Shown here: in pieces, positions 6,864 to 63,470 of the stretch
Layout of the letters: each line of letters starts with the position of its first letter
Position numbering within the stretch: position 1 is the first letter of the stretch
Assembly: GCF_003334785.1 (NCBI RefSeq)
Contig: NZ_QOWV01000016.1
Length of the DNA stretch: 64,000 nucleotides
Strand: one strand, 5' to 3'
From: Escherichia coli
GTDB lineage: Bacteria; Pseudomonadota; Gammaproteobacteria; Enterobacterales; Enterobacteriaceae
The notes under the pieces: generated by a model
What the model was told of the DNA's origin: nothing
Database searches by the model: none
The model's input: the letters and a program-made list of their open reading frames with translations, nothing else
Position numbers and translations under genes: made by a program

Positions 6864-8933
6864 ATGTCTGAGAAAACTTTTCTGGTGGAAATCGGCACTG
6901 AAGAGCTGCCACCAAAAGCACTGCGCAGCCTGGCTGAGTCCTTTGCTGCGAACTTTACTGCGGAGCTGGATAACGCTGGCCTCGCACACGGCACCGTTCA
7001 ATGGTTTGCTGCTCCGCGTCGTCTGGCGCTGAAAGTAGCTAACCTGGCGGAAGCGCAACCGGATCGTGAAATCGAAAAACGCGGCCCGGCGATTGCCCAG
7101 GCGTTCGACGCTGAAGGCAAACCGAGCAAAGCGGCAGAAGGTTGGGCGCGTGGTTGCGGTATTACCGTTGACCAGGCTGAGCGTCTGACTACCGATAAAG
7201 GCGAATGGCTGCTGTATCGCGCCCATGTGAAGGGCGAAAGCACCGAAGCACTGCTGCCGAATATGGTTGCGACTTCTCTGGCGAAACTGCCGATCCCGAA
7301 ACTGATGCGTTGGGGCGCAAGCGACGTGCACTTCGTGCGTCCGGTGCACACCGTGACCCTGCTGCTGGGCGACAAAGTCATTCCGGCAACCATTCTGGGC
7401 ATTCAGTCCGATCGCGTGATTCGCGGCCACCGCTTTATGGGCGAGCCGGAATTCACCATCGATAACGCCGATCAGTATCCGGAAATTCTGCGTGAGCGTG
7501 GGAAAGTCATCGCCGATTACGAAGAACGTAAGGCGAAGATTAAAGCCGATGCCGAAGAAGCAGCGCGTAAGATTGGCGGTAACGCTGACTTAAGCGAAAG
7601 CCTGCTGGAAGAAGTGGCTTCGCTGGTGGAGTGGCCGGTCGTTCTGACCGCAAAATTCGAAGAGAAATTCCTCGCGGTGCCGGCTGAAGCGCTGGTTTAC
7701 ACCATGAAAGGTGACCAGAAATACTTCCCGGTGTATGCGAACGACGGCAAACTGCTGCCGAACTTTATCTTCGTTGCCAACATCGAATCGAAAGATCCGC
7801 AGCAGATTATCTCCGGTAACGAGAAAGTCGTTCGTCCGCGTCTGGCGGATGCCGAGTTCTTCTTCAACACCGACCGTAAAAAACGTCTTGAAGATAACCT
7901 GCCGCGCCTGCAAACCGTGTTGTTCCAGCAACAGTTGGGGACGCTGCGCGACAAAACTGACCGCATCCAGGCGCTGGCTGGCTGGATTGCTGAACAGATT
8001 GGCGCTGACGTTAACCACGCTACCCGTGCGGGTCTGCTGTCTAAGTGCGACCTGATGACCAACATGGTCTTCGAGTTCACCGACACCCAGGGCGTTATGG
8101 GGATGCACTATGCGCGTCACGATGGCGAAGCGGAAGATGTCGCGGTGGCGCTGAATGAGCAGTATCAGCCGCGTTTTGCTGGTGATGACCTGCCGTCCAA
8201 CCCAGTAGCTTGTGCGCTGGCGATTGCTGACAAGATGGATACCCTGGCGGGTATCTTCGGTATCGGTCAGCATCCGAAAGGCGACAAAGACCCGTTTGCG
8301 CTGCGTCGTGCCGCGCTTGGCGTGCTGCGAATTATCGTTGAGAAGAACCTCAACCTTGATCTGCAAACGCTGACCGAAGAAGCGGTGCGTCTGTATGGCG
8401 ATAAGCTGACTAATGCCAACGTAGTTGATGATGTTATCGACTTTATGCTCGGTCGCTTCCGCGCCTGGTATCAGGACGAAGGTTATACCGTTGACACCAT
8501 CCAGGCGGTACTGGCGCGTCGTCCGACTCGTCCGGCTGATTTCGATGCCCGTATGAAAGCGGTATCGCATTTCCGTACCCTGGATGCAGCTGCTGCACTG
8601 GCGGCGGCGAACAAACGTGTATCTAACATTCTGGCGAAATCTGACGAAGTGCTGAGCGACCGCGTGAATGCCTCTACCCTGAAAGAGCCGGAAGAAATTA
8701 AACTGGCGATGCAGGTTGTGGTGCTACGTGACAAGCTGGAGCCGTACTTTACGGAAGGTCGTTACCAGGATGCGCTGGTCGAACTGGCTGAGCTGCGTGA
8801 ACCGGTTGATGCTTTCTTCGATAAAGTGATGGTCATGGTTGATGACAAAGAATTGCGTATCAACCGTCTGACCATGCTGGAGAAACTGCGCGAACTGTTC
8901 CTGCGCGTTGCGGATATTTCGCTGTTGCAATAA
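6864..8933 (+). CDS. glyS: Glycine--tRNA ligase beta subunit (689 aa)
   Basis: [40 protein letters not shown]...; operon partner of glyQ. Confidence 0.95.
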
Positions 8934-8950
8934 TAACGCCGTTATTAAAT

Positions 8951-8977
8951 AGCCTGCCATCTGGCAGGCTTTTTTTA
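8951..8977 (+). terminator. Rho-independent terminator of glyQS
   Basis: agcctgccatctggcaggct followed by ttttttt, 18 bp after the glyS stop. Confidence 0.8.
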
Positions 8978-9211
8978 TCGCTAAATAATACAGCAACCTT
9001 TAATAATCTTCTGCTGAATAAAGATTATCTCATATATTAATTTTATGAGATTTTTTTAGGATTATATCAAGGAGAAGAAACAAACTTATTAAGCTAGAAT
9101 AGCCACGGGTGCTTGAGACTGTTTGTCTCAGGTATTCACCGAAAGGCAGACAGAGAAAAGCCCCACCTGACTATAAATCAAAGTTTGTACTGACCCCAAA
9201 AAGTTGGACAG

Positions 9212-10063
9212 TTAAACACGAGGCATATAGGTCTGATTCCGATATTCAATTGGAGTCAGACCTTTTAATTTCAGGCTAATTCTTCTGCTGTTGTAGTATT
9301 CAATATATTCCGTAACAGCATCCTTCAGTTCGCTTATATTACTGAACTCATCAAGATAAAAACACTCCGACTTTAAGGTTCCAAAGAAACACTCCACCAC
9401 AGCATTATCCAGACAATTGCCTTTTCTGGACATGCTTTGTTTAATACCATGTTCTTTAAGGATATTTTGATATCTTCTCATACGATACTGCCATCCCTGG
9501 TCAGAGTGCAGAACAGGATGCTCGTGAGGATTAAGCTTTTTGAATGCCTGATCGAGCATATTCTCAACCATGTTCATCACTGGTCTTTCCGAAAGGCTGT
9601 AAGAAATAACTTCGTTGTTGAAGAGATCTATTACTGGAGACAAATACAGCTTGCGCCCATTGACTGCAAATTCAGTAACATCGGTAACCCACTTCTCGTT
9701 TGGCCGCGTAGCCTTGAAATCTCTTTGGAGAACATTAGGGGCGGTTTGCCCTACCTCTCCTCTGTAAGAGCGGTATCGCTTGACCTTAATCGCTGCTTTA
9801 AGTGAGAGGGTTCCCATCAGGCGCTGAACAGCTTTATGGTTAATCTGTTTCCCTTCTCGATGAAGAGACAGCGTTACCCTACGGTATCCGTATCGGCCTC
9901 TATTCTCGTGATAAATCTCACTAATACGCTTTTTAACGTCCGCATACTTGTCAGGCTTGCTGAGAGCCTTTAGATGATAATAAAACGTACTGCGCGGTAT
10001 CTCCGCAGCCCTGAGAAGCTCATCAAGAGGATAAAACTGCCTTAGCTCGTTGAGTACTTTCAC
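9212..10063 (-). CDS. insK: IS150 transposase OrfB (DDE catalytic domain), 283 aa
   Basis: [32 protein letters not shown]... IS3-family integrase core; GTG start overlapping the orfA stop. Confidence 0.9.
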
Positions 10064-10581
10064 TTTTTCGTGGGATGAGCTAAGGCTTTCAGCTTTTTTA
10101 GATACATAAGCCGCGTTTCAAGAAATCGAACTTGCCTTTCAAGATCCTCAATGCGTCGGTCTTTTGACAGCTCCAATGCTGATGCCGCTTTTTCTGGATC
10201 AACTGATATTGCAATGTTTCTTTTGGTGCCAATCTTGAGCGCGCGTAAACCAGCTTCTCCGCGCTCTTCATAGACCTTCAGCCACCTGGCTACAGAACCA
10301 CTACCAGCAAGCATAAAGTGAGCAGCAGCCTGATTAAGGGACATGTGCTGCTCGATCACAGCTTTCACGACCTTAATACGCAACTCTGGATCAGCACTAA
10401 CGCCTTTAGGTTTGGGAATTAAACCTTTTTCTCCATGTTTTTCATAGAGGGCAACCCATGTCCTGACCTGGGTTCGGGGGACACCAAAACGTGCCGAGAT
10501 GATCCTGTAACCATCATCAGTTGTGAAGTAGTGATTCACGACTTCAAGGCGCTTTTCAAAAGGGTATTTTGGCTTTGACAT
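10060..10581 (-). CDS. insJ: IS150 OrfA (HTH DNA-binding), 173 aa
   Basis: MSKPKYPFEKRLEVVNHYFTTDDGYRIISARFGVPRTQVRTWV...; ends ...HPTKK* overlapping orfB. Confidence 0.9.
   Translation of the reverse strand: MSKPKYPFEKRLEVVNHYFTTDDGYRIISARFGVPRTQVRTWVALYEKHGEKGLIPKPKGVSADPELRIKVVKAVIEQHMSLNQAAAHFMLAGSGSVARWLKVYEERGEAGLRALKIGTKRNIAISVDPEKAASALELSKDRRIEDLERQVRFLETRLMYLKKLKALAHPTKK
10093..10099 (-). other. Candidate programmed -1 ribosomal frameshift heptamer (A AAA AAG) for OrfAB fusion
   Basis: Minus-strand A AAA AAG in the orfA frame, inside the region where the orfB frame is already open; a second A AAA AAG sits at the orfA stop (10063..10069). Which one is used cannot be decided from sequence. 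Confidence 0.5.
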
Positions 10582-10660
10582 ATTAGGGGCTATTCCATTT
10601 CATCGTCCAACAAAATGGGTGCAGTACATACTCGTTGGAAATCAACACAGGAGGCTGGGA

Positions 10661-10813
10661 ATGCCGCAGAAATATAGATTACTTTCTTTAATAGTGATTT
10701 GTTTCACGCTTTTATTTTTCACCTGGATGATAAGAGATTCACTGTGTGAATTGCATATTAAACAGGAGAGTTATGAGCTGGCGGCGTTTTTAGCCTGCAA
10801 ATTGAAAGAGTAA
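10661..10813 (+). CDS. hokA: Hok-family type I toxin HokA (50 aa)
   Basis: MPQKYRLLSLIVICFTLLFFTWMIRDSLCELHIKQESYELAAFLACKLKE: Hok/Gef fold (single TM, conserved C..SLCE.. core). The overlapping mok-like frame (ORF 10619..10813) begins inside the IS150 right end. Confidence 0.85.
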   Translation: MPQKYRLLSLIVICFTLLFFTWMIRDSLCELHIKQESYELAAFLACKLKE

Positions 10814-10943
10814 GAGTCTTCGGCGGGAAATTATTCCCGCCTTACTTACGGCGTTGCGCATTCTCATTGCACCCAAATTTATTCTTCACAAAAATAATAA
10901 TAGATTTTATTACGCGATCGATTATTTATTTCCTGAAAACAAA

Positions 10944-10973
10944 TAAAAAAATCCCCGCCAAATGGCAGGGATC
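10944..10973 (-). terminator. Rho-independent terminator of cspA
   Basis: Minus strand reads atccctgccatttggcggggat followed by ttttttt, about 27 nt after the cspA stop. Confidence 0.75.
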
Positions 10974-10999
10974 TTAGATTCTGTGCTTTTAAGCAGAGA

Positions 11000-11212
11000 T
11001 TACAGGCTGGTTACGTTACCAGCTGCCGGGCCTTTAGCGCCGCTTTCGATGGTGAAGGACACTTTCTGACCTTCGTCCAGAGATTTGTAACCATCGTTCT
11101 GGATAGCAGAGAAGTGTACGAACACATCTTTAGAGCCATCGTCAGGAGTGATGAAGCCGAAGCCTTTGTCAGCGTTGAACCATTTTACGATACCAGCCAT
11201 TTTACCGGACAT
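11000..11212 (-). CDS. cspA: Major cold-shock protein CspA (70 aa)
   Basis: [73 protein letters not shown]1/RNP2 motifs present. Confidence 0.97.
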
Positions 11213-11371
11213 AGTGTATTACCTTTAATAATTAAGTGTGCCTTTCGGCGATATGGCGTGCTTTACAGATTTTGAAGCGTTAAAGGAATGTGCACTACGA
11301 GGGGTATCAACGATAACTCTTGAAGGGACTTGCCTTACTACACTGCTTTAATGGTCTGTACGTCAAACCGT
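11213..11371 (-). promoter_or_regulatory. cspA 159-nt 5' UTR (RNA thermosensor, contains the cold box)
   Basis: Reverse complement begins ACGGTTTGACGTACAGACCATTAAAGCAGTG..., which matches my recollection of the cspA mRNA 5' end including the cold-box TGACGTACAGA; length to the ATG is 159 nt. Confidence 0.75.
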
Positions 11372-11430
11372 TGATGTGCATTAAGCCACGCATTGGCGGG
11401 TGATGCAACAATTATTTTTCATATTTATGA
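11372..11430 (-). promoter_or_regulatory. cspA promoter (-35 TTGCAT, -10 CTTAAT, upstream AT-rich UP element)
   Basis: Minus strand: ataaatatgaaaaataaTTGCATcacccgccaatgcgtggCTTAATgcacatcaA(+1). Confidence 0.65.
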
Positions 11431-11492
11431 TTAATCGGTTGGAAAACGGTCCTGTCATCAGGACCGTAAACAGCAATAAAGTGGATAAAAGT

Positions 11493-11783
11493 CTATTCCA
11501 TCAACTGCTTACTTAATGCCGGGTTGGCTTGAATCAAACGCATCAATTTTAGTTCGGCACTTGAAGGCTTCACGCGTCTGGATTCCCATTCCTTTACCAT
11601 GGCGACTGATACGCCCAAAACCCGGGCGAAATCATCGATTTTTAATCCTGTCCCTTTTCGTAACTGCTCAATTTCGGTACAGGACGTTGTTCTGTGCGTC
11701 AGGGTAATTTTCTGCGTTTCATCTTTAAAAACAATCTGTTCCAGGCTGCTCAACAGCTCATGCATTGGATCTTTATATTCCAT
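11493..11783 (-). CDS. yiaG: XRE-family HTH transcriptional regulator YiaG (96 aa)
   Basis: MEYKDPMHELLSSLEQIVFKDETQ...LRKGTGLKIDDFARVLGVSVAMVKEWESRR: Cro/C1-type HTH. Confidence 0.85.
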   Translation of the reverse strand: MEYKDPMHELLSSLEQIVFKDETQKITLTHRTTSCTEIEQLRKGTGLKIDDFARVLGVSVAMVKEWESRRVKPSSAELKLMRLIQANPALSKQLME

Positions 11784-12216
11784 TGAAAACTCCTCAAATC
11801 ACACTGCGGGATCGTGAATTGCATCGAAGCTCATTAAGAATAGTCGGGAAAAGCAGACACAGCGGGGTGAAGTCAGGGCATGCTCTGGCTATGATTCGAT
11901 TCAGCCTGTCATTTAGCGTGACTTATAGCCACCTAACGATCTGATAAATGCCGATATATCTCTTACCACTCCTGTTTTGTAAAGATTTCGAAAATCTAAC
12001 CTTCTGCGAAGGCGTAAATCTCTGGCTACAAAAAAGGCAACGGCACTATCATTTTTTAACAATGAAACAACAAATTAACCTTGTTTCATTTTCTCCATGA
12101 TTTTACCAGGAAGATTACGTAGAAAGGGTATCCTGCAAGCCTGTCCTGGACTATCCTTGTCACGTCAGACACGCGTGTGTCGTTGTGCGCTTTTTTTGGG
12201 TGAAAGGAGTAAGAAA

Positions 12217-12927
12217 ATGGCGACAGGAAAGTCCTGCTCTCGCTGGTTTGCGCCTCTTGCGGCGTTATTAATGGTAGTTAGCCTGAGTGGGTGTTTTGAT
12301 AAAGAAGGCGATCAGCGTAAAGCGTTTATCGACTTCCTGCAGAATACAGTGATGCGTAGCGGTGAACGTCTACCAACCCTGACTGCCGATCAGAAAAAAC
12401 AGTTTGGTCCTTTTGTCTCTGATTACGCGATTCTGTATGGTTATTCTCAGCAGGTGAATCAGGCGATGGATTCCGGTCTGCGCCCGGTTGTAGACAGCGT
12501 TAACGCAATTCGCGTACCGCAGGATTACGTTACGCAAAGCGGTCCGCTGCGTGAAATGAACGGTTCGCTGGGTGTGCTGGCGCAACAACTGCAAAATGCG
12601 AAGTTGCAGGCCGATGCTGCGCACTCTGCGCTAAAACAGAGCGATGATTTGAAACCGGTCTTTGATCAGGCATTCACCAAAGTGGTAACGACGCCAGCTG
12701 ATGCATTGCAACCGTTGATTCCGGCGGCACAAACTTTCACGCAACAACTGGTGATGGTTGGAGACTACATTGCTCAGCAAGGTACTCAGGTGAGCTTTGT
12801 CGCAAATGGCATCCAGTTCCCGACTTCACAGCAGGCAAGTGAATATAACAAACTGATTGCGCCATTACCGGCACAGCATCAGGCGTTTAATCAGGCCTGG
12901 ACTACAGCAGTTACTGCAACCCAATAA
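12217..12927 (+). CDS. yiaF: Putative lipoprotein YiaF (236 aa)
   Basis: ORF 12097..12927; ATG at 12217 preceded by AGGAGT gives MATGKSCSRWFAPLAALLMVVSLSGC| with a lipobox. Confidence 0.8.
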   Translation: MATGKSCSRWFAPLAALLMVVSLSGCFDKEGDQRKAFIDFLQNTVMRSGERLPTLTADQKKQFGPFVSDYAILYGYSQQVNQAMDSGLRPVVDSVNAIRVPQDYVTQSGPLREMNGSLGVLAQQLQNAKLQADAAHSALKQSDDLKPVFDQAFTKVVTTPADALQPLIPAAQTFTQQLVMVGDYIAQQGTQVSFVANGIQFPTSQQASEYNKLIAPLPAQHQAFNQAWTTAVTATQ

Positions 12928-55152: not shown

Positions 55153-56475
55153 TTACAACGACTGATGTCGCGTCTCATGGGTCAGCAGCAGGGCGATTAA
55201 CGTCAAGCCAGCCATCGCCGCCAGATATAACCCCACCGCACCTAGCCCGTAGTTAGTCTGCAACCAGGCTGCGATATATGGCGCAACGGAAGCCCCGAGA
55301 ATCGACGCTACGTTGTAAGAGAACGATGCTCCGGTGTAACGCACTTCTGTCGGAAACAGCTCTGGTAACAGCGCACCCATTGGCCCGAAGGTCAGACCCA
55401 TCAGACTTAACCCCAGCAGCAGGAAGGCAAAAACCAGAATCGGGTTGCCAGAACCGAGCAGTGGGTTAAAGGCGAACAGCGCGAACAGGATGATCAGCGT
55501 GGTGATGATTACCATGCTTTTACGGCGACCAAAGGCATCAGCCAGTAATCCAGCGACTGGCACCATCACGCCAAAACCAATAACTGCCATCATCAACATC
55601 CACAACACTTCGTTACGCGGCAGGCCAAGCCCAACTGGCGCGGCGGCGGTACTAAAGGTCATAGAGTAGACCGTCATGATGTAAAACAGCGTATAGGTTG
55701 CCAGCATAATGAACGTACCCAGTACGGTTACGCGAACATGTTTGGTCAGCAGCGTACCCAGCGGGATCTTCACCTGTTTTTTCGCTTTAGCGACTTTCTC
55801 AAACACCGGCGACTCATGCAGCGACACGCGAACATACAGGCCGATAATGACCAGCACCGCCGAGAAGATAAATGGCACACGCCAGCCCCAGCTCATAAAC
55901 TGCTCGTCGGTCAGTAGCCAGGAAAGCAGCAAGAAAGTGCCATTGGCAAAGAAGAAGCCAATCGGTGCGCCCAGCTGCGGAAAGGAGCCATACAGTGCAC
56001 GTTTGCGCGGTGGGGCGTTTTCAGTCGCCAGCAGCGCCGCGCCGCCCCATTCACCGCCTAAGCCCAGACCCTGACCAAATCGAGCCAGCGCCAGCAGCAG
56101 CGGGGCGAAAATACCAATCGTGGCATAGCCCGGCAGCAGACCAATCACCACGGTCGAAATCCCCATCGTTAGCAACGAGGCGACCAGCGTCGCTTTACGC
56201 CCAACGCGATCGCCAAAATGACCAAAAACGGCAGAGCCAATGGGGCGCGCGACGAAGGCGATGGCGAAGGTGGCGAGCGACTGTAGCGTTGCTGCCGTAG
56301 GATCGCCCTGCGGGAAGAAGATATGCGGAAACACAATAACGGCCGCAGTGGCGTAAATGTAAAAGTCGAAGAACTCAATGGCTGTGCCAATGAGAGAGGC
56401 GACAAGGACTTTATTACGCGAGTTGATCGGCGTGTATTCTTGCTCGTGGTCGAGTGTTGTGGCTGTTGCTTGCAT
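55153..56475 (-). CDS. yhjE: MFS metabolite:H+ symporter-family transporter YhjE (440 aa)
   Basis: MQATATTLDHEQEYTPINSRNKVLVASLIGTAIEFFDFYIYATAAVIVFP...; MFS signature GHFGDRVGRK. Confidence 0.9.
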   Translation of the reverse strand: MQATATTLDHEQEYTPINSRNKVLVASLIGTAIEFFDFYIYATAAVIVFPHIFFPQGDPTAATLQSLATFAIAFVARPIGSAVFGHFGDRVGRKATLVASLLTMGISTVVIGLLPGYATIGIFAPLLLALARFGQGLGLGGEWGGAALLATENAPPRKRALYGSFPQLGAPIGFFFANGTFLLLSWLLTDEQFMSWGWRVPFIFSAVLVIIGLYVRVSLHESPVFEKVAKAKKQVKIPLGTLLTKHVRVTVLGTFIMLATYTLFYIMTVYSMTFSTAAAPVGLGLPRNEVLWMLMMAVIGFGVMVPVAGLLADAFGRRKSMVIITTLIILFALFAFNPLLGSGNPILVFAFLLLGLSLMGLTFGPMGALLPELFPTEVRYTGASFSYNVASILGASVAPYIAAWLQTNYGLGAVGLYLAAMAGLTLIALLLTHETRHQSL

Positions 56476-56787
56476 AATCTTTTCTTATTTTTTGGCTAAC
56501 GAATAGCCATATTACGCACAGCAAAAGTGATATTTCAATGTGTAACAAATCGCGGAAATGGTCAAAAATCAGGCAAAAAGGGGATAATGTTTAGGCCAGT
56601 GATTTTTCTTCTATGAAATGCTTCACATAATTTTATAAATAGTGGATAAAACTGGTTTCAGGTTAAATAAAAGTTACCAACTGGATTTATATGCTGGGGT
56701 TATGAGTTGGAATGAAATTGTTTGCTCCCAAATAGATGGCTGAAGAGGCTCTGGGGACGAGTTTCAAGAGGTTATGTGCGCATTATA

Positions 56788-56883
56788 GCCGGATGCGATG
56801 CTGGCGCATCTTATCCGGCCTACGGGGAGCCAGGCCGAATAAAATCGTATGCCGGATAAGGCGTTTACGCCGCATCCGGCCTA
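56788..56883. repeat. REP elements (pair) downstream of yhjD
   Basis: gccggatgcgatgctggcgcatcttatccggcctac and gccggataaggcgtttacgccgcatccggcctat. Confidence 0.8.
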
Positions 56884-56885
56884 TT

Positions 56886-57899
56886 TTAAGGCTGCGTTTT
56901 CCCCGGCATTCGCGGGTCGTCTTTATATTCGGCGGTGGCAATCCACGCCGCGCAAAACAGCGTCAAACGGGCGAAGAAGTAGAAAAATGCCATCAGCCCC
57001 AGCACGGAACCAAATGCTGCGCCAGAGGGGGATTTCATCAACGATGGCAGGGTGTAGGTCATCACGATTTTAATCACTTCAAAACCAATAGCAGCCAGAA
57101 ATGTTCCGCGAATCAGGGCTTTTTTGCGCGGACGGTGGCGCGGCAACCGCCAGAAGATCCAGAAGAAAAGCAGATAGTTGGCGAAGATGGAAATCGCCAG
57201 GCCAATCAATCGCCACGTCGGTTTCAGCCACTCAATGCTGTTCAGGTGCAGGGCGCTAATAATCATTTGCTGCGCCGAACCGGCAACCGAGGTGATCGAA
57301 AGCGTCACAATCAGCGCAATCAACAAACCAATCAGCGAAATAAAATCTCGCAGATATTTTACCCAGAACTTCTCCTGATCTTGCGGCGAGCGTTCCCAGA
57401 CATCGCGCGACTGGGCACGAATCGCTTCACGCAGGTTACCCATCCAGTTGATGCCGGAATAAAGTGCCACCGCCAGGCCGACAAGCCCTACAGTCGTACG
57501 CTGCTGAACGGCGGTGTTGATGGTGTTTTTCAACGTGGCGGCTAGCGTCGGATCGCTGATGTTTTGCAGAATTTTGTCGAAGATATCCTGTAGCAACATC
57601 GGATGGGAGGCCAGCACAAAGCCCCCTGCGGCAAACGACACCATCAAAATTGGTATCATCGACAAAAATGAGAAATAGGTGATAGCCGCACCAAACTGGT
57701 TACCCAGCCGATCGTTAAAGCGTTCTGTCGCGCGAATCAGGTGCGCAATAACCGGTTGGCGTTGGACTTTTTCGGCAGTGGTGGTGACGGTTTCCAGCGC
57801 CTGGCTAACTTTGCTGCCTTTCTCGCTATTATCCAACGGCTTAATCGGCTCGTGCTCCAGATCCTGGATGGGACGTTTGATCTCGTTTTCCTGCGTCAT
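56886..57899 (-). CDS. yhjD: Inner-membrane protein YhjD (YihY/virulence-factor BrkB family), 337 aa
   Basis: MTQENEIKRPIQDLEHEPIKPLDNSEKGSKVSQALETVTTTAEKVQRQPVIAHLIRATERF...; six predicted TM helices. Confidence 0.9.
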   Translation of the reverse strand: MTQENEIKRPIQDLEHEPIKPLDNSEKGSKVSQALETVTTTAEKVQRQPVIAHLIRATERFNDRLGNQFGAAITYFSFLSMIPILMVSFAAGGFVLASHPMLLQDIFDKILQNISDPTLAATLKNTINTAVQQRTTVGLVGLAVALYSGINWMGNLREAIRAQSRDVWERSPQDQEKFWVKYLRDFISLIGLLIALIVTLSITSVAGSAQQMIISALHLNSIEWLKPTWRLIGLAISIFANYLLFFWIFWRLPRHRPRKKALIRGTFLAAIGFEVIKIVMTYTLPSLMKSPSGAAFGSVLGLMAFFYFFARLTLFCAAWIATAEYKDDPRMPGKTQP

Positions 57900-57947
57900 C
57901 CGCTCTTTTGTCCTTCTGTCGTGGTCATTCTTAAAAAGTATAGTCGG

Positions 57948-58847
57948 TCAGTCCAGGTACTCTTTCATTACGCCAGCCAGCCACTGCATAAACAGGTTTA
58001 CACGCCGGGAAAGCTCCCGACGCTGCGGATAAACCAGCGAAAGGGAGAGCGGCTCGGCACGGTAGCCAGGTAATACTTCAATAAGCCGCCCGGCACGCAG
58101 GGCTTCGCGCACGGCAATGCGCGGGATCTGAATAATCCCCAGACCGGCAAGACCGGCGGTGAGATAGTTTTCGCTACTGTTTACCGTCAACATGCCGCCA
58201 GACTTAAACCACTGGACGCCATTAACGCTGGCAACCTCAAAACCTAACGGATGTACACCTAGGTGCGGTGTATAACGCACTATTGCGTGTGAAGTCAGAT
58301 CATCGGGGCTTTGCGGATAACCAAAGCGCGTCAGATAGTGCGGACTGGCACAGTTGACCATGGTCAGTTTGCCGAGGGGACGGGCGATAACGCCATCTTC
58401 CGGTAACGCGCCAGTGCGTATCACGCAATCAAAACCATCATGAAGAATATCTACCGGACGGTCATGGCTACTCAGTTCCAGCTCAATTCCCGGATGCAGA
58501 TAGAGAAATTCCGACAGGCGCGGCAGTAACAGGCTTTTCGCGATTCCTGGCGGGATGTCGATGCGTAATTTACCGCTGATACTGGTGGCATCCTGTTGAA
58601 ACAGACCGTCCAGTTCGCTGAGATTACTCAACACATCTTTTGCTCGTTGATAATAGGTCATGCCTTCTGGCGTGAGTTTGACCCGTCGCGTGGTGCGCTG
58701 GAGAAGCTGGGTGCCAAGTTGATGTTCCAGTGCCTGTATCTGGCGCGAAACACTTCCCTTTGGCAAAGCAAAGAAATCCGCTGCGCGGGAAAAACTTTCC
58801 AGCTCCGCGACTTTGATGAACAACTGCATTGCGTGAATTTTATCCAT
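57948..58847 (-). CDS. yhjC: LysR-family transcriptional regulator YhjC (299 aa)
   Basis: ORF 57948..58919; start taken at MDKIHAMQLFIKVAELESFSRAADFFALPKGSVSRQIQALEHQLGTQLLQRTTRR (LysR HTH). Confidence 0.9.
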   Translation of the reverse strand: MDKIHAMQLFIKVAELESFSRAADFFALPKGSVSRQIQALEHQLGTQLLQRTTRRVKLTPEGMTYYQRAKDVLSNLSELDGLFQQDATSISGKLRIDIPPGIAKSLLLPRLSEFLYLHPGIELELSSHDRPVDILHDGFDCVIRTGALPEDGVIARPLGKLTMVNCASPHYLTRFGYPQSPDDLTSHAIVRYTPHLGVHPLGFEVASVNGVQWFKSGGMLTVNSSENYLTAGLAGLGIIQIPRIAVREALRAGRLIEVLPGYRAEPLSLSLVYPQRRELSRRVNLFMQWLAGVMKEYLD

Positions 58848-59366
58848 TTCTTTGACCGATTGTTGTTCACAGCGAAACAGTAACGCGCATATCGCATTGT
58901 TTATTGTTTTTTCTAACATCTAATGCCGGGTTTCACAATGTTGTCATGCCGAATGTGGCGATTTCTCAGCAGGAAAAGGGCGGAATAGCTTTCTGAGAAA
59001 GGTGAATCCCCTTAAACAGAGCGTATTTTTCAGCGATTCCCTTTAAAGTGAACAGAGGACGTGTTGGCTATTTGTGCTTATTTTTGTCTCCTTGCCGTTT
59101 GTTATTTTGGCTTGTGGTCGCGGAATTTCATTTTTAATTGCATGCGTACTAACCACCAATATAAGGAAATCCTCAAAATTGTTTTAAATAGTGCCCTCGA
59201 CATGTAATTTCAGGCGTTTAGCTGTAACTATTTATATCGGTAACTATTTTCTACACGTCATCTCTGTAGAATGGCCACCGCCAAATGGCGAATTCTTATT
59301 TTTTCTCGCGGGTAATACCCTTCCACTACTTAAGTCTTTTTAACGTATTCAGGTGGAGATTCAGTT

Positions 59367-59969
59367 ATGCAAATAGTCATGTTTGACAGGCAGTCAATAT
59401 TTATTCATGGAATGAAAATCAGTTTACAGCAGCGTATTCCAGGAGTGAGTATTCAGGGGGCCAGTCAGGCAGACGAGTTATGGCAAAAGCTGGAAAGTTA
59501 CCCTGAAGCCTTAGTTATGCTCGATGGCGATCAGGATGGTGAGTTTTGCTACTGGTTGCTGCAAAAAACCGTGGTGCAATTTCCTGAGGTTAAGGTGTTA
59601 ATTACGGCGACGGATTGCAATAAACGGTGGTTACAGGAAGTTATCCATTTTAATGTGCTGGCCATTGTGCCTCGTGATTCAACCGTCGAGACATTTGCGT
59701 TGGCGGTAAATAGTGCGGCGATGGGGATGATGTTTCTGCCTGGAGACTGGCGGACGACGCCGGAAAAGGACATTAAAGATCTCAAATCGTTAAGCGCCCG
59801 CCAGCGGGAGATTTTAACCATGTTAGCGGCGGGCGAATCAAATAAGGAGATCGGCAGAGCGCTGAATATCAGTACCGGAACGGTAAAAGCGCATCTGGAA
59901 TCCCTGTATCGCCGTCTGGAAGTGAAAAATCGCACCCAGGCGGCAATGATGTTAAATATCTCCTCCTGA
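59367..59969 (+). CDS. yhjB: LuxR/FixJ-type regulator YhjB (receiver-like N-terminus plus C-terminal LuxR HTH), 200 aa
   Basis: C-terminal LSARQREILTMLAAGESNKEIGRALNISTGTVKAHLESLYRRLEV is a LuxR-type HTH; the N-terminal region resembles a response-regulator receiver. Confidence 0.9.
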   Translation: MQIVMFDRQSIFIHGMKISLQQRIPGVSIQGASQADELWQKLESYPEALVMLDGDQDGEFCYWLLQKTVVQFPEVKVLITATDCNKRWLQEVIHFNVLAIVPRDSTVETFALAVNSAAMGMMFLPGDWRTTPEKDIKDLKSLSARQREILTMLAAGESNKEIGRALNISTGTVKAHLESLYRRLEVKNRTQAAMMLNISS

Positions 59970-60019
59970 AGAGGATAATTTTACAGCCAGCAGGAAGTTA
60001 GCGGCTGGCTGTAAAAATA

Positions 60020-61699
<1,680 letters not shown>

Positions 61700-61951
61700 T
61701 TATCGGCTTTTCTTTAAGGGTAGTCATTCGCTCCGCCTGGTGGGCGACAAAGCGTGCGGTGGATCACGTTTATTAACCTGTCAAAAAATATAACGCACTA
61801 ATATCAATGGAATTTATAAAAATACCGATTTGGTGTTGTTTTTCATTTTCAGAACATTCAATCCTGCTCTCGCCGCAATCATGATATGCCATTCCTGATC
61901 TGGGTAATAGGCACAGGCTATCTTATTGATAGTTTATATTCATGTAATTGA

Positions 61952-61965
61952 TTGATTCCTATCAA
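61952..61965. promoter_or_regulatory. Consensus FNR box (TTGAT-N4-ATCAA) upstream of yhjA
   Basis: ttgattcctatcaa is a perfect match to the FNR half-site consensus, about 110 bp upstream of the yhjA ATG in the treF-yhjA divergent region. Confidence 0.55.
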
Positions 61966-62072
61966 AAAGCGTATCTCCCTGTTTTTTATGATGGCTTTGT
62001 CTCGCAGAGACGTTTGCAGCATTCTGGAAAATTTTCTGGGTCACAATAACTCACCACCGTGAGGGAAGAATA

Positions 62073-63470
62073 ATGAAAATGGTCTCACGTATTACCGCGA
62101 TCGGCCTGGCTGGCGTCGCGATTTGCTATTTAGGGTTATCTGGTTATGTGTGGTACCACGATAATAAACGCAGTAAACAGGCCGATGTTCAGGCATCTGC
62201 TGTCAGTGAAAATAATAAGGTTTTAGGCTTTCTCCGCGAAAAAGGATGCGACTATTGCCACACGCCTTCGGCAGAATTACCCGCCTATTATTATATTCCT
62301 GGCGCGAAACAGTTGATGGATTACGACATTAAGCTTGGATATAAATCTTTTAACCTTGAGGCCGTGCGTGCGGCACTGCTGGCTGATAAACCCGTTTCGC
62401 AAAGCGATTTGAATAAGATTGAATGGGTGATGCAGTATGAAACTATGCCACCAACGCGTTATACCGCGCTACACTGGGCGGGTAAGGTGAGTGATGAAGA
62501 GCGGGCGGAAATACTGGCCTGGATTGCAAAACAGCGCGCGGAATATTACGCCAGCAATGATACTGCTCCGGAACATCGCAATGAACCGGTGCAGCCCATC
62601 CCGCAAAAACTGCCTACCGATGCGCAAAAAGTGGCGTTGGGTTTTGCGCTGTATCACGATCCCCGTTTATCGGCTGATAGCACCATTTCATGCGCTCATT
62701 GCCATGCGTTGAATGCGGGGGGCGTCGATGGCAGAAAAACATCGATTGGTGTTGGTGGCGCAGTTGGGCCGATTAACGCGCCGACGGTATTTAACTCAGT
62801 ATTTAACGTTGAGCAGTTCTGGGATGGTCGTGCGGCAACATTGCAGGATCAGGCTGGTGGACCGCCGTTGAACCCGATTGAAATGGCGTCGAAATCCTGG
62901 GACGAAATTATTGCTAAGCTGGAAAAAGATCCGCAGCTTAAAACGCAGTTCCTCGAAGTCTATCCGCAAGGTTTCAGTGGCGAAAATATTACTGATGCCA
63001 TTGCTGAATTTGAGAAAACATTAATTACGCCGGATTCCCCATTTGATAAATGGTTGCGCGGAGATGAAAATGCGCTGACGGCGCAACAGAAAAAAGGCTA
63101 TCAATTATTTAAAGATAATAAATGTGCAACTTGTCATGGTGGTATTATTCTCGGCGGACGTTCCTTTGAACCGTTGGGGCTGAAAAAAGACTTTAACTTT
63201 GGGGAAATTACGGCGGCGGATATTGGTCGTATGAATGTGACTAAAGAAGAGCGTGATAAATTGCGTCAGAAAGTACCCGGTTTACGTAACGTTGCTTTAA
63301 CGGCACCGTACTTCCATCGCGGTGACGTGCCGACGCTGGACGGGGCGGTGAAACTGATGCTGCGCTATCAGGTAGGCAAAGAGCTGCCGCAGGAGGATGT
63401 GGATGATATCGTAGCTTTCCTGCACAGTCTGAACGGGGTGTACACGCCGTATATGCAGGATAAACAATAA
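62073..63470 (+). CDS. yhjA: Tri-haem cytochrome c peroxidase YhjA (465 aa)
   Basis: N-terminal TM anchor and three CxxCH haem-binding motifs (CDYCH, CAHCH, CATCH). Confidence 0.9.
   Translation: MKMVSRITAIGLAGVAICYLGLSGYVWYHDNKRSKQADVQASAVSENNKVLGFLREKGCDYCHTPSAELPAYYYIPGAKQLMDYDIKLGYKSFNLEAVRAALLADKPVSQSDLNKIEWVMQYETMPPTRYTALHWAGKVSDEERAEILAWIAKQRAEYYASNDTAPEHRNEPVQPIPQKLPTDAQKVALGFALYHDPRLSADSTISCAHCHALNAGGVDGRKTSIGVGGAVGPINAPTVFNSVFNVEQFWDGRAATLQDQAGGPPLNPIEMASKSWDEIIAKLEKDPQLKTQFLEVYPQGFSGENITDAIAEFEKTLITPDSPFDKWLRGDENALTAQQKKGYQLFKDNKCATCHGGIILGGRSFEPLGLKKDFNFGEITAADIGRMNVTKEERDKLRQKVPGLRNVALTAPYFHRGDVPTLDGAVKLMLRYQVGKELPQEDVDDIVAFLHSLNGVYTPYMQDKQ

Follow-up and report, generated by a model that had tools for sequence, protein, structure and literature searches.

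The rcdB-yhjB Locus and Its Intergenic Region

This work concerns the regulatory genes rcdB (also named yhjC) and yhjB, and the long gap that separates them, in a window of 64,000 nucleotides of Escherichia coli DNA (contig NZ_QOWV01000016.1). The rcdB gene (b3521; 299 aa) occupies positions 57948-58847 on the minus strand and the yhjB gene (b3520; 200 aa) positions 59367-59969 on the plus strand, as given by the list of open reading frames (ORFs) and by the RefSeq annotation of FDAARGOS_1248 and K-12, with exactly 519 bp between them (58848-59366). A preliminary description of this DNA had presented yhjC and yhjB as divergently transcribed across a 519-bp AT-rich region, and both sources confirmed the arrangement and its length. 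As set out below, the gap most likely represents the remains of a region that lost an ancestral dehydrogenase gene, and the YhjB protein carries a conserved variant of the receiver pocket, in which two of the residues required for normal phosphorylation are missing.

The 8,001 nt around the locus showed a single mismatch with the reverse strand of NC_000913.3 (K-12 MG1655), and a 2.1-kb stretch was found in 5,424 of 5,426 complete E. coli genomes with 95-100% identity, in line with the earlier view of the region as conserved chromosomal DNA instead of a new system; it is the annotated, ordinary rcdB(yhjC)-yhjB locus of E. coli K-12. The genes yhjE and yhjD lie upstream of rcdB, treF and ccp (yhjA) lie beyond yhjB, and the order yhjG-yhjE-yhjD-rcdB...yhjB-treF was kept from Escherichia to Enterobacter in species-representative genomes. 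The locus is therefore core and syntenic, and not a recently acquired island. The K-12 annotation shows no feature inside the gap. The rcdB ORF can be extended by 24 codons at its 5' end (58848-58919, minus strand) up to an ATG at 58919, but a 323-aa product starting there was rejected in favor of the annotated start at 58847, because relatives contain a 1-nt indel between the two starts and the frame is not kept; the non-coding extension is thus conserved as DNA and not as protein.

The GC content of the gap is 39.7%, compared with 53.2% for rcdB, 47.8% for yhjB (43.7% over its first 284 nt), and 53.9% for treF. Composition and gap statistics were computed on an annotated strain sequence covering the same chromosomal stretch, in which the intergenic regions of at least 100 bp (n = 23) have a mean GC content of 40.4% (standard deviation, 5.1) and the genes one of 51.9% (standard deviation, 4.1), yhjB being about 1 standard deviation low. 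None of the other divergent gaps (9 in all, 152-519 bp) is as long, and among all 35 gaps only one exceeds its 519 bp, which fits its designation as unusually long. The claim of AT-richness held only in part, since the gap lies below its flanking genes in GC content but is not set apart from the local intergenic DNA (39.7 versus 40.4%); its AT-richness is therefore real but ordinary for intergenic DNA in this region.

A Dehydrogenase Gene Separates rcdB and yhjB in Most Enterobacteriaceae

Orthologues of YhjB were collected, and their loci were fetched from species-representative genomes. In most genera the distance between rcdB and yhjB was 1.04-1.44 kb, and an intact ORF of 252 aa was present between them in about 42 of the about 52 species genomes where both genes adjoin. 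This ORF, which starts MTQRIALVTGGSRGLGK, is divergent from rcdB and codirectional with yhjB, and its product matched NCBIfam as an SDR-family oxidoreductase (short-chain dehydrogenase; SDR). It was found in most Citrobacter and in the Klebsiella oxytoca group, Kluyvera, Enterobacter, Lelliottia, Pseudocitrobacter, Superficieibacter, Huaxiibacter, and Pseudenterobacter. Six genera had exactly 119 bp between rcdB and the SDR gene and another had 117 bp, and the spacer between the SDR gene and yhjB ranged from 175 to 540 bp. The SDR gene was absent from all the Escherichia (gap, 504-519 bp) and all the Salmonella (627-630 bp) examined, as well as from Intestinirhabdus alba (898 bp) and one uncultured Enterobacteriaceae genome (551 bp). 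In Citrobacter rodentium, where the gap is 952 bp, frameshifted SDR fragments covering residues 1-110 and 149-190 were detected by tblastn (E = 2e-30), which shows the gene in the course of its decay.

Both ends of the E. coli gap find counterparts in the spacers of these relatives. Gap positions 6-92 aligned with 72-79% identity to the 119-bp spacer of Citrobacter, Klebsiella, Pseudocitrobacter, and Superficieibacter, and gap positions 352-512 aligned with 79% identity to the last ~165 bp before yhjB in Citrobacter amalonaticus. In an alignment of 27 species, the homology to the ancestral spacer continued through TTCTCAAT and ended about 15-20 nt before the ribosome-binding site of the SDR gene. 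We propose that the ancestral order in Enterobacteriaceae would have been rcdB, a divergent spacer of 119 bp, the SDR gene, a spacer of 175-540 bp, and yhjB, i.e. a classical LysR-type regulator divergent from an enzyme gene and followed by yhjB as an independent transcription unit. The SDR gene would then have been lost in the Escherichia and Salmonella lineages and would have decayed or been lost separately in a few others; loss of the gene would have joined the two former spacers, in E. coli as a single gap of 519 bp. The portrayal of rcdB and yhjB as a divergent pair sharing a long region needs to be revised, since in most Enterobacteriaceae the SDR gene stands between them and rcdB is paired with that gene at a fixed distance of 117-119 bp; their juxtaposition in E. 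coli appears to be secondary rather than that of an ancestral pair.

Two further differences in gene content were observed around yhjB. The rcdB-yhjB interval of Citrobacter sp. On2M extends over 2.57 kb and contains, besides the SDR gene, an additional ORF of 146 aa (L016:2897-3337) that we take, by eye, to be CadC/OmpR-like. In Salmonella enterica, the interval between yhjB and treF (L003:5609-7835) holds two genes absent from E. coli, encoding a phage-lysozyme-family protein (118 aa) and a HEPN_STY4199-domain protein (529 aa).

Two Conserved Blocks Flank a Variable Middle in the E. coli Gap

Comparison of six Escherichia species revealed 90-96% identity at positions 58848-58927, 42-65% at 58928-59165, and 84-94% at 59166-59366, the flanking proteins being 86-96% identical over the same species. 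According to this profile, the gap consists of three parts: conserved control DNA of rcdB, about 100 bp long and including a candidate LysR-type box; some 220-240 bp of unconstrained and fast-diverging AT-rich DNA; and a conserved promoter and leader of yhjB that take up about 200 bp.

The rcdB-proximal control block (58848-58948) is homologous to the ancestral rcdB-SDR spacer of 117-119 bp, and in the 27-species alignment it contained the invariant motifs ATTGTTGTT..GAAACAGT and TTTATTG..TTCTA.CA.CTAAT. Within the first of these, a GTT-N11-AAC dyad of the LysR-type T-N11-A form can be read at 58862-58878, and both of its arms are invariant or nearly so in the 27 species. This dyad is a candidate recognition site for RcdB.

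The PhoB box TTTCACAATGTTGTCATG (58931-58948) was located by published chromatin immunoprecipitation (ChIP) data, position 3672318 of NC_000913.3 corresponding to position 58943 of the window. Its binding is documented by ChIP-seq, ChIP-chip, and a weak electrophoretic mobility shift (PMC10294691, PMC3465305), and it has been classed as inert, there being no PhoB-dependent change in expression (252/397 versus 218/408 counts; PMC10294691). The box marks the point beyond which sequence homologous to the ancestral spacer is no longer found, and E. albertii, E. whittamii, and cryptic Escherichia have a degenerate second half-site, features that fit the published finding of no expression effect. 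From its position, the PhoB box may have arisen by chance at a deletion junction.

The hypervariable middle (58949-59165) could not be aligned between genera and has no detectable function. Its turnover is unusually fast for a comparison within one genus; the contrast of 42-65% identity with the 86-96% of the flanking proteins therefore indicates that these ~240 bp are effectively unconstrained, and we interpret them as scar or otherwise unconstrained DNA. No ORF of at least 15 aa in the gap was intact across all six Escherichia species. A scan of positions 56400-62200 against Rfam (E <= 1) gave no match in the gap, with only sub-threshold REP/naRNA4 matches outside it, and a consensus scan for promoters and terminators over 58700-59500 yielded a single minus-strand sigma-70-like site (1.5 expected by chance) and no terminator.

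The region upstream of yhjB (59166-59366, plus strand) showed 79% identity over 164 nt to C. amalonaticus and contained blocks conserved across genera. One of them is the -10-like hexamer TAGAAT (59267-59272, plus strand; TAAAAT in some genera), which lies in a GTA[G/A]AAT context kept almost universally across 64 loci from Escherichia to Enterobacter and Lelliottia and which, judged by this conservation, is probably the -10 element of the yhjB promoter. A transcript in the direction of yhjB was obtained from the gap by run-off transcription in vitro, with a sigmaS/sigma70 ratio of 1.58 that denotes a modest sigmaS preference (PMC3141248). Directly downstream of the hexamer, the motif GCCAAATGGCGAATTCTTATTTT ... 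AATACCCTTCC (59280-59329, plus strand) was near-invariant in Escherichia, Salmonella, Citrobacter, Klebsiella, Kluyvera, Pseudocitrobacter, and Superficieibacter; Enterobacter and Lelliottia lack it. The motif may represent a conserved promoter-proximal operator, i.e. a protein-binding site, or a linear RNA or leader motif. The Shine-Dalgarno region of yhjB can be read as GGTGGAGA (59352-59359, plus strand), its GGAG being conserved in the alignments.

Several candidate elements in this leader were considered and rejected. An upstream ORF of 14 codons (59271-59315) has lost its start (ATC/ATA) in Enterobacter, Pseudocitrobacter, and Citrobacter werkmanii and contains +1 indels in three Citrobacter sequences, and over the 64 loci its ATG overlaps the conserved -10-like hexamer. 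Two hairpins, CGCC/GGCG and GGGTA/TACCC, have left arms that vary without compensation, and RNAalifold assigned them -3.2 kcal/mol with almost no covariation term. A helix that would sequester the Shine-Dalgarno region (59321-59326 with 59353-59358) was paired in 77% of cases versus 79% when slid by one column, and its covariation score was reached by 90 of 500 shuffles. A possible RcsB half-box, TAAGAAT (59293-59299, minus strand), was suggested by the report that in Salmonella indole co-induces yhjB with the wca genes and bglJ; it agrees with the RcsAB box at only 9 of 14 positions and would be no more than a candidate.

YhjB Has a Receiver Fold with a Conserved Variant Pocket

Two domains were assigned to the yhjB product. 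Codons 140-195 (59784-59951, plus strand) encode a GerE/LuxR-type helix-turn-helix (Pfam PF00196, E = 5.1e-22), and codons 1-125 (59367-59741, plus strand) encode, according to a structural model and Foldseek, a receiver-like (beta-alpha)5 domain with a variant pocket formed by D7, R8, D53, and R103. Pfam Response_reg (PF00072) did not match YhjB even at E <= 10, and a sequence search of its N-terminal 128 residues against the Protein Data Bank gave nothing relevant. The N-terminal domain alone was represented by 46 sequences among 1.84 billion proteins, and 8 of 18 aligned N-terminal homologues matched Response_reg (best, 4e-29), these more distant ones being canonical receivers. The AlphaFold model of YhjB (predicted local distance difference test score, 87.4) consists of five strand-helix units (strands at residues 2-6, 28-32, 49-53, 76-81, and 97-102; helices at 10-23, 35-44, 58-71, 86-95, and 107-118) followed by four helices. 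Searched with Foldseek, it resembled VraR, LiaR, and RcsB (E ~1e-12) and also DesR, NarL, EvgA, and VpsT, and the isolated receiver domain of RcsB gave a TM score of 0.77. These results support therefore the term "receiver-like" at the level of the fold, and as modeled YhjB is a two-domain regulator of the NarL/FixJ type.

The residues of the pocket were identified by alignment to canonical receivers (CheY numbering) and counted over 64 YhjB orthologues. The first acidic residue, D12 of CheY, corresponds to D7 of YhjB and the phospho-acceptor D57 to D53, and both are Asp in 64 of 64 sequences; G54, beside D53, was present in 63. In contrast to these canonical positions, the place of the Mg2+ ligand D13 is taken by R8 (Arg in 57, Lys in 6, Thr in 1, never acidic), that of K109 by R103 (Arg in 63, Lys in 1), and that of T87 by T80, where Thr or Ser was found in only 27 of 64. 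Across genera, the helix-turn-helix is 73-93% identical, versus 26-69% for the N-terminal domain. From these alignments, the YhjB pocket is a conserved variant and not the product of random decay, and it is without the metal ligand needed for canonical phosphotransfer. We propose that YhjB, like the atypical receivers of the CsgD or VpsT type, most likely works independently of canonical phosphorylation by a kinase and binds DNA through its GerE helix-turn-helix.

The preliminary description had regarded YhjB as an orphan LuxR-type regulator, a view that agrees with the GerE match, the receiver fold, and the lack of any annotated histidine kinase in ~61 kb of annotated equivalent sequence; a canonical phosphorylatable receiver paired with a known kinase would have spoken against that description, and what was found is the non-canonical set D7-R8...D53...R103 in place of DD...D...K. 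In the literature no kinase is known for YhjB (PMC3405474), and QseC showed no phosphotransfer to it (PMC2726761). A single weak site in vivo, near dhaK, was reported for YhjB by ChIP-exo (PMC8464067 supplement).

We also considered a more specific proposal, that D7, R8, D53-G54, and R103 form a selected alternative signaling pocket, such as a phospho-mimicking internal salt bridge or a place where a partner protein or small ligand binds, and that this pocket, together with the 59280-59329 motif, defines a kinase-independent switch specific to Enterobacteriaceae, maybe once linked to the substrate or product of the lost SDR. This proposal is speculative, and we think it unlikely to hold.

Some E. 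coli strains carry a YhjB allele of 211 aa (cluster P0014, 221 contigs, e.g. KTE73; related clusters P0010-P0024) that equals the K-12 protein up to about residue 163 and then runs out of frame, so that the recognition helix of the helix-turn-helix is destroyed; yhjB therefore appears to be dispensable in some lineages. Outside the syntenic locus, Kosakonia and Leminorella contain a yhjB homologue (38-46% identical) that is not beside rcdB. In Kosakonia arachidis (L061:1910-3259 and its neighbors) an integrase gene is found ~740 bp from this homologue, which also has a lysozyme-like ORF at its side, an arrangement that points to a mobile island as the location of the Kosakonia copy. The neighbors of the Kosakonia and Leminorella homologues, an integrase gene and unannotated small ORFs, gave no functional clue.

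RcdB Targets, H-NS Occupancy, and Expression of the Locus

RcdB matched LysR-family NCBIfam models over its full length (YafC, 9.5e-52; GcvA, 9.7e-49), all of them below the equivalog cut-offs, and its Salmonella orthologue contains Pfam HTH_1 (PF00126) and LysR_substrate (PF03466). The label "poorly characterised" is outdated for YhjC, since the protein has been renamed RcdB as an activator of csgD (PMC9068703) and has been reported to activate virF in Shigella (PMC8218686) and spvD and zraP in Salmonella (PMC9867438). Among its published ChIP-exo peaks, those at rpsJ, cspA/yiaG, and yhcC recur in the lists of other factors and may be non-specific.

A suggestion of H-NS silencing had been made for the region, and H-NS occupancy finds support in the literature: the 2011 ChIP-seq of Kahramanoglou et al. 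served to flag the PhoB site of the gap as H-NS-bound, and the RNA-seq counts of both rcdB and yhjB are low (PMC10294691 Table 1). In the gap, A/T runs of at least 5 have a density of 0.10 per base, versus 0.04 for the window. Occupancy of the gap by H-NS is therefore likely on the published data, and the locus would, as far as the literature indicates, combine an H-NS-occupied AT-rich gap with two weakly expressed genes and a transcriptionally inert PhoB site.

Elsewhere in the window, the region at ~7500-12500 (glyS-hokA-cspA-yiaG) holds ~1.45 kb more than FDAARGOS_1248 (the offset passing from +1375 to -76), an excess that an insertion element present in K-12 could explain, and further, smaller offsets of 76-77 bp relative to FDAARGOS_1248 were seen beyond it. 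In the yhjE-yhjD interval (56771-56921, both strands), sub-threshold matches to Rfam naRNA4 (RF02564; best, 39.4 bits versus a gathering score of 59.5) were found, which we take to be REP-type repeats.

Origin and Meaning of the Gap

Taken as a whole, an interpretation in which an annotated, H-NS-occupied and weakly expressed locus owes its gap to the loss of the SDR gene and encodes a YhjB with an atypical receiver is one that we consider probable. Several observations weigh against it. Searches by tblastn for an SDR remnant in the gaps of E. coli, Salmonella, and I. alba gave nothing significant (best E = 0.2), and the direction of the change is deduced from the distribution of the gene and one pseudogene, not from a dated tree. 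The YhjC ChIP-exo peak nearest its own gene (U00096.2 3670355-3670371, signal/noise 3.99; PMC8464067 supplement) maps to 58523-58539, inside the rcdB coding sequence and off the proposed box. The invariance of D7 and D53 in 64 orthologues would be surprising for a functionless pocket and therefore leaves room for phosphorylation by acetyl phosphate or a distant kinase. Finally, work cited in PMC3405474 is quoted there as reporting that YhjB stimulates the dephosphorylation of EnvZ and NtrB in vitro.

The two last points lead to the view that YhjB is an orphan response regulator that can be phosphorylated, the phosphate coming from acetyl phosphate or from a distant kinase. In addition to the invariant aspartates and the near-invariant G54, its fold matches phosphorylatable regulators of the NarL family, its orthologues bear the NCBI name "response regulator transcription factor," and the quoted effect on phospho-EnvZ and phospho-NtrB would fit such a role. 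Nevertheless, the substitution of the D13, K109, and T87 positions, the failure of Response_reg to match, and the lack both of a kinase gene in the window and of phosphotransfer from QseC point the other way, and phosphorylation of YhjB by such routes, although possible, seems to us rather doubtful.

A second view would keep rcdB and yhjB as a genuine divergent pair with one long control region in common, which H-NS would silence and which may lie on AT-rich DNA of horizontal origin. The divergent orientation of the genes over 519 bp, the low GC content of the gap and of yhjB, the reported H-NS binding, and the excess of A/T runs are all as such a region would have them. Against this stand the SDR gene that separates the two genes in most genera, with the distance of rcdB fixed to that gene and not to yhjB, and the fact that yhjB is preceded, at ~100 bp from its start, by a conserved -10-like element and leader of its own. 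Moreover, even inside Escherichia the gap shows no conservation in its middle, the GC content of the gap equals the local intergenic mean, and the locus is nearly universal in E. coli and syntenic across Enterobacteriaceae, so that a shared and silenced control region appears improbable.

Still less credit can be given to the converse history, in which Escherichia and Salmonella would keep an ancestral state without the SDR gene and the other genera would have gained it between rcdB and yhjB. The lack of an SDR remnant in E. coli and Salmonella is compatible with it, as is the weak similarity (~62% over 21 nt) of their post-junction sequences. A gain is less likely because of the wide distribution of the gene (at least nine genera spanning the family), its fixed spacer of 117-119 bp, and the pseudogene decaying in place in C. 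rodentium. In addition, E. coli keeps spacer motifs that in relatives sit on the SDR side, and an enzyme gene divergent from its regulator is the standard arrangement for LysR-type regulators.

Lastly, it appears improbable that the gap hides something functional, be it a small protein, a leader peptide or upstream ORF of yhjB, a small RNA, or a structured cis-regulatory RNA. In favor of this idea, the 14-codon ORF (MATAKWRILIFSRG) keeps its ATG, TAA, and length in four genera (E. coli, Salmonella, C. rodentium, and I. alba), conservation is higher in the ~90-nt leader than in the N-terminal domain of YhjB, the minimum-free-energy fold of E. coli pairs TTCCAC (59321-59326) with the Shine-Dalgarno region, and an A-U pair becomes G-C in six Citrobacter sequences. 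Against it, that ORF fails in the wider set of 64 loci, no ORF of at least 15 aa stays intact in six Escherichia species, nothing is annotated in K-12, there is no Rfam match, the RNAalifold energy is weak, the helix does no better than slid or shuffled controls, and the E. coli leader fold has a z of only -0.57.

Under the preferred interpretation of SDR loss, the 519-bp gap should not be read as a single shared regulatory region but as a composite derived from gene loss, with a neutral middle between two distinct conserved control blocks. Such an origin would explain why the ChIP-verified PhoB site is inert and not conserved. It also suggests that RcdB/YhjC originally controlled the neighboring SDR gene, a link that would offer a route to the RcdB ligand in Citrobacter, Klebsiella, or Enterobacter, and the loss of this partner would account for the regulation by RcdB/YhjC of scattered unlinked genes in E. 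coli, Shigella, and Salmonella. For YhjB, the variant pocket directs work from a search for kinases to phosphorylation-independent mechanisms. Neither the origin of the gap by SDR loss nor its three-part structure was found in the literature searched on this locus; these two points and the conserved variant pocket of YhjB are what is added here to the annotation, as modest comparative observations whose consequences chiefly concern annotation and the interpretation of published data and do not overturn current understanding.

Comparison with Known Regulatory Systems

YhjB shares with the NarL/FixJ family (RcsB, VraR, LiaR, NarL, and EvgA) the (beta-alpha)5 receiver fold joined to a four-helix GerE/LuxR helix-turn-helix, and it keeps the phospho-acceptor Asp; a full-length phmmer comparison matched VraR at 3e-11. 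It differs from that family in having Arg for both the second acidic residue and the conserved Lys and a variable residue at the T87 position, and in lacking both a Pfam Response_reg match and a partner kinase. CsgD and VpsT resemble YhjB in the fusion of a receiver-like domain with an incomplete pocket to a GerE helix-turn-helix, and the VpsT structures 3kln and 3klo are among the fold matches of YhjB (E ~1e-8). In contrast to VpsT, the cyclic di-GMP motif W[F/L/M][T/S]R is absent from YhjB, which reads W128-R129-T130-T131; its orthologues have the form W-L-[S/N/T]-x, with Trp in 44 of 64, then Leu, Arg, or Ile, a variable residue, and a fourth position at which Arg is not conserved. Among the NCBIfam matches of YhjB, CsgD ranks second, the similarity being confined to the helix-turn-helix (residues 136-194).

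The gap is like H-NS-bound AT-rich intergenic regions with inert sites in being AT-rich, reportedly bound by H-NS, and furnished with an ineffective PhoB site (PMC10294691), and unlike them in belonging to a core syntenic locus and not to a horizontally acquired island. With respect to the classical pair of a LysR-type regulator and a divergent enzyme gene, the relatives resemble the model in that rcdB lies 117-119 bp from the divergent SDR gene, with conserved dyad motifs between them. E. coli and Salmonella depart from it in that the presumed ancestral target is gone and the published RcdB targets are unlinked, but of the original pair E. coli keeps the regulator and most of the spacer.

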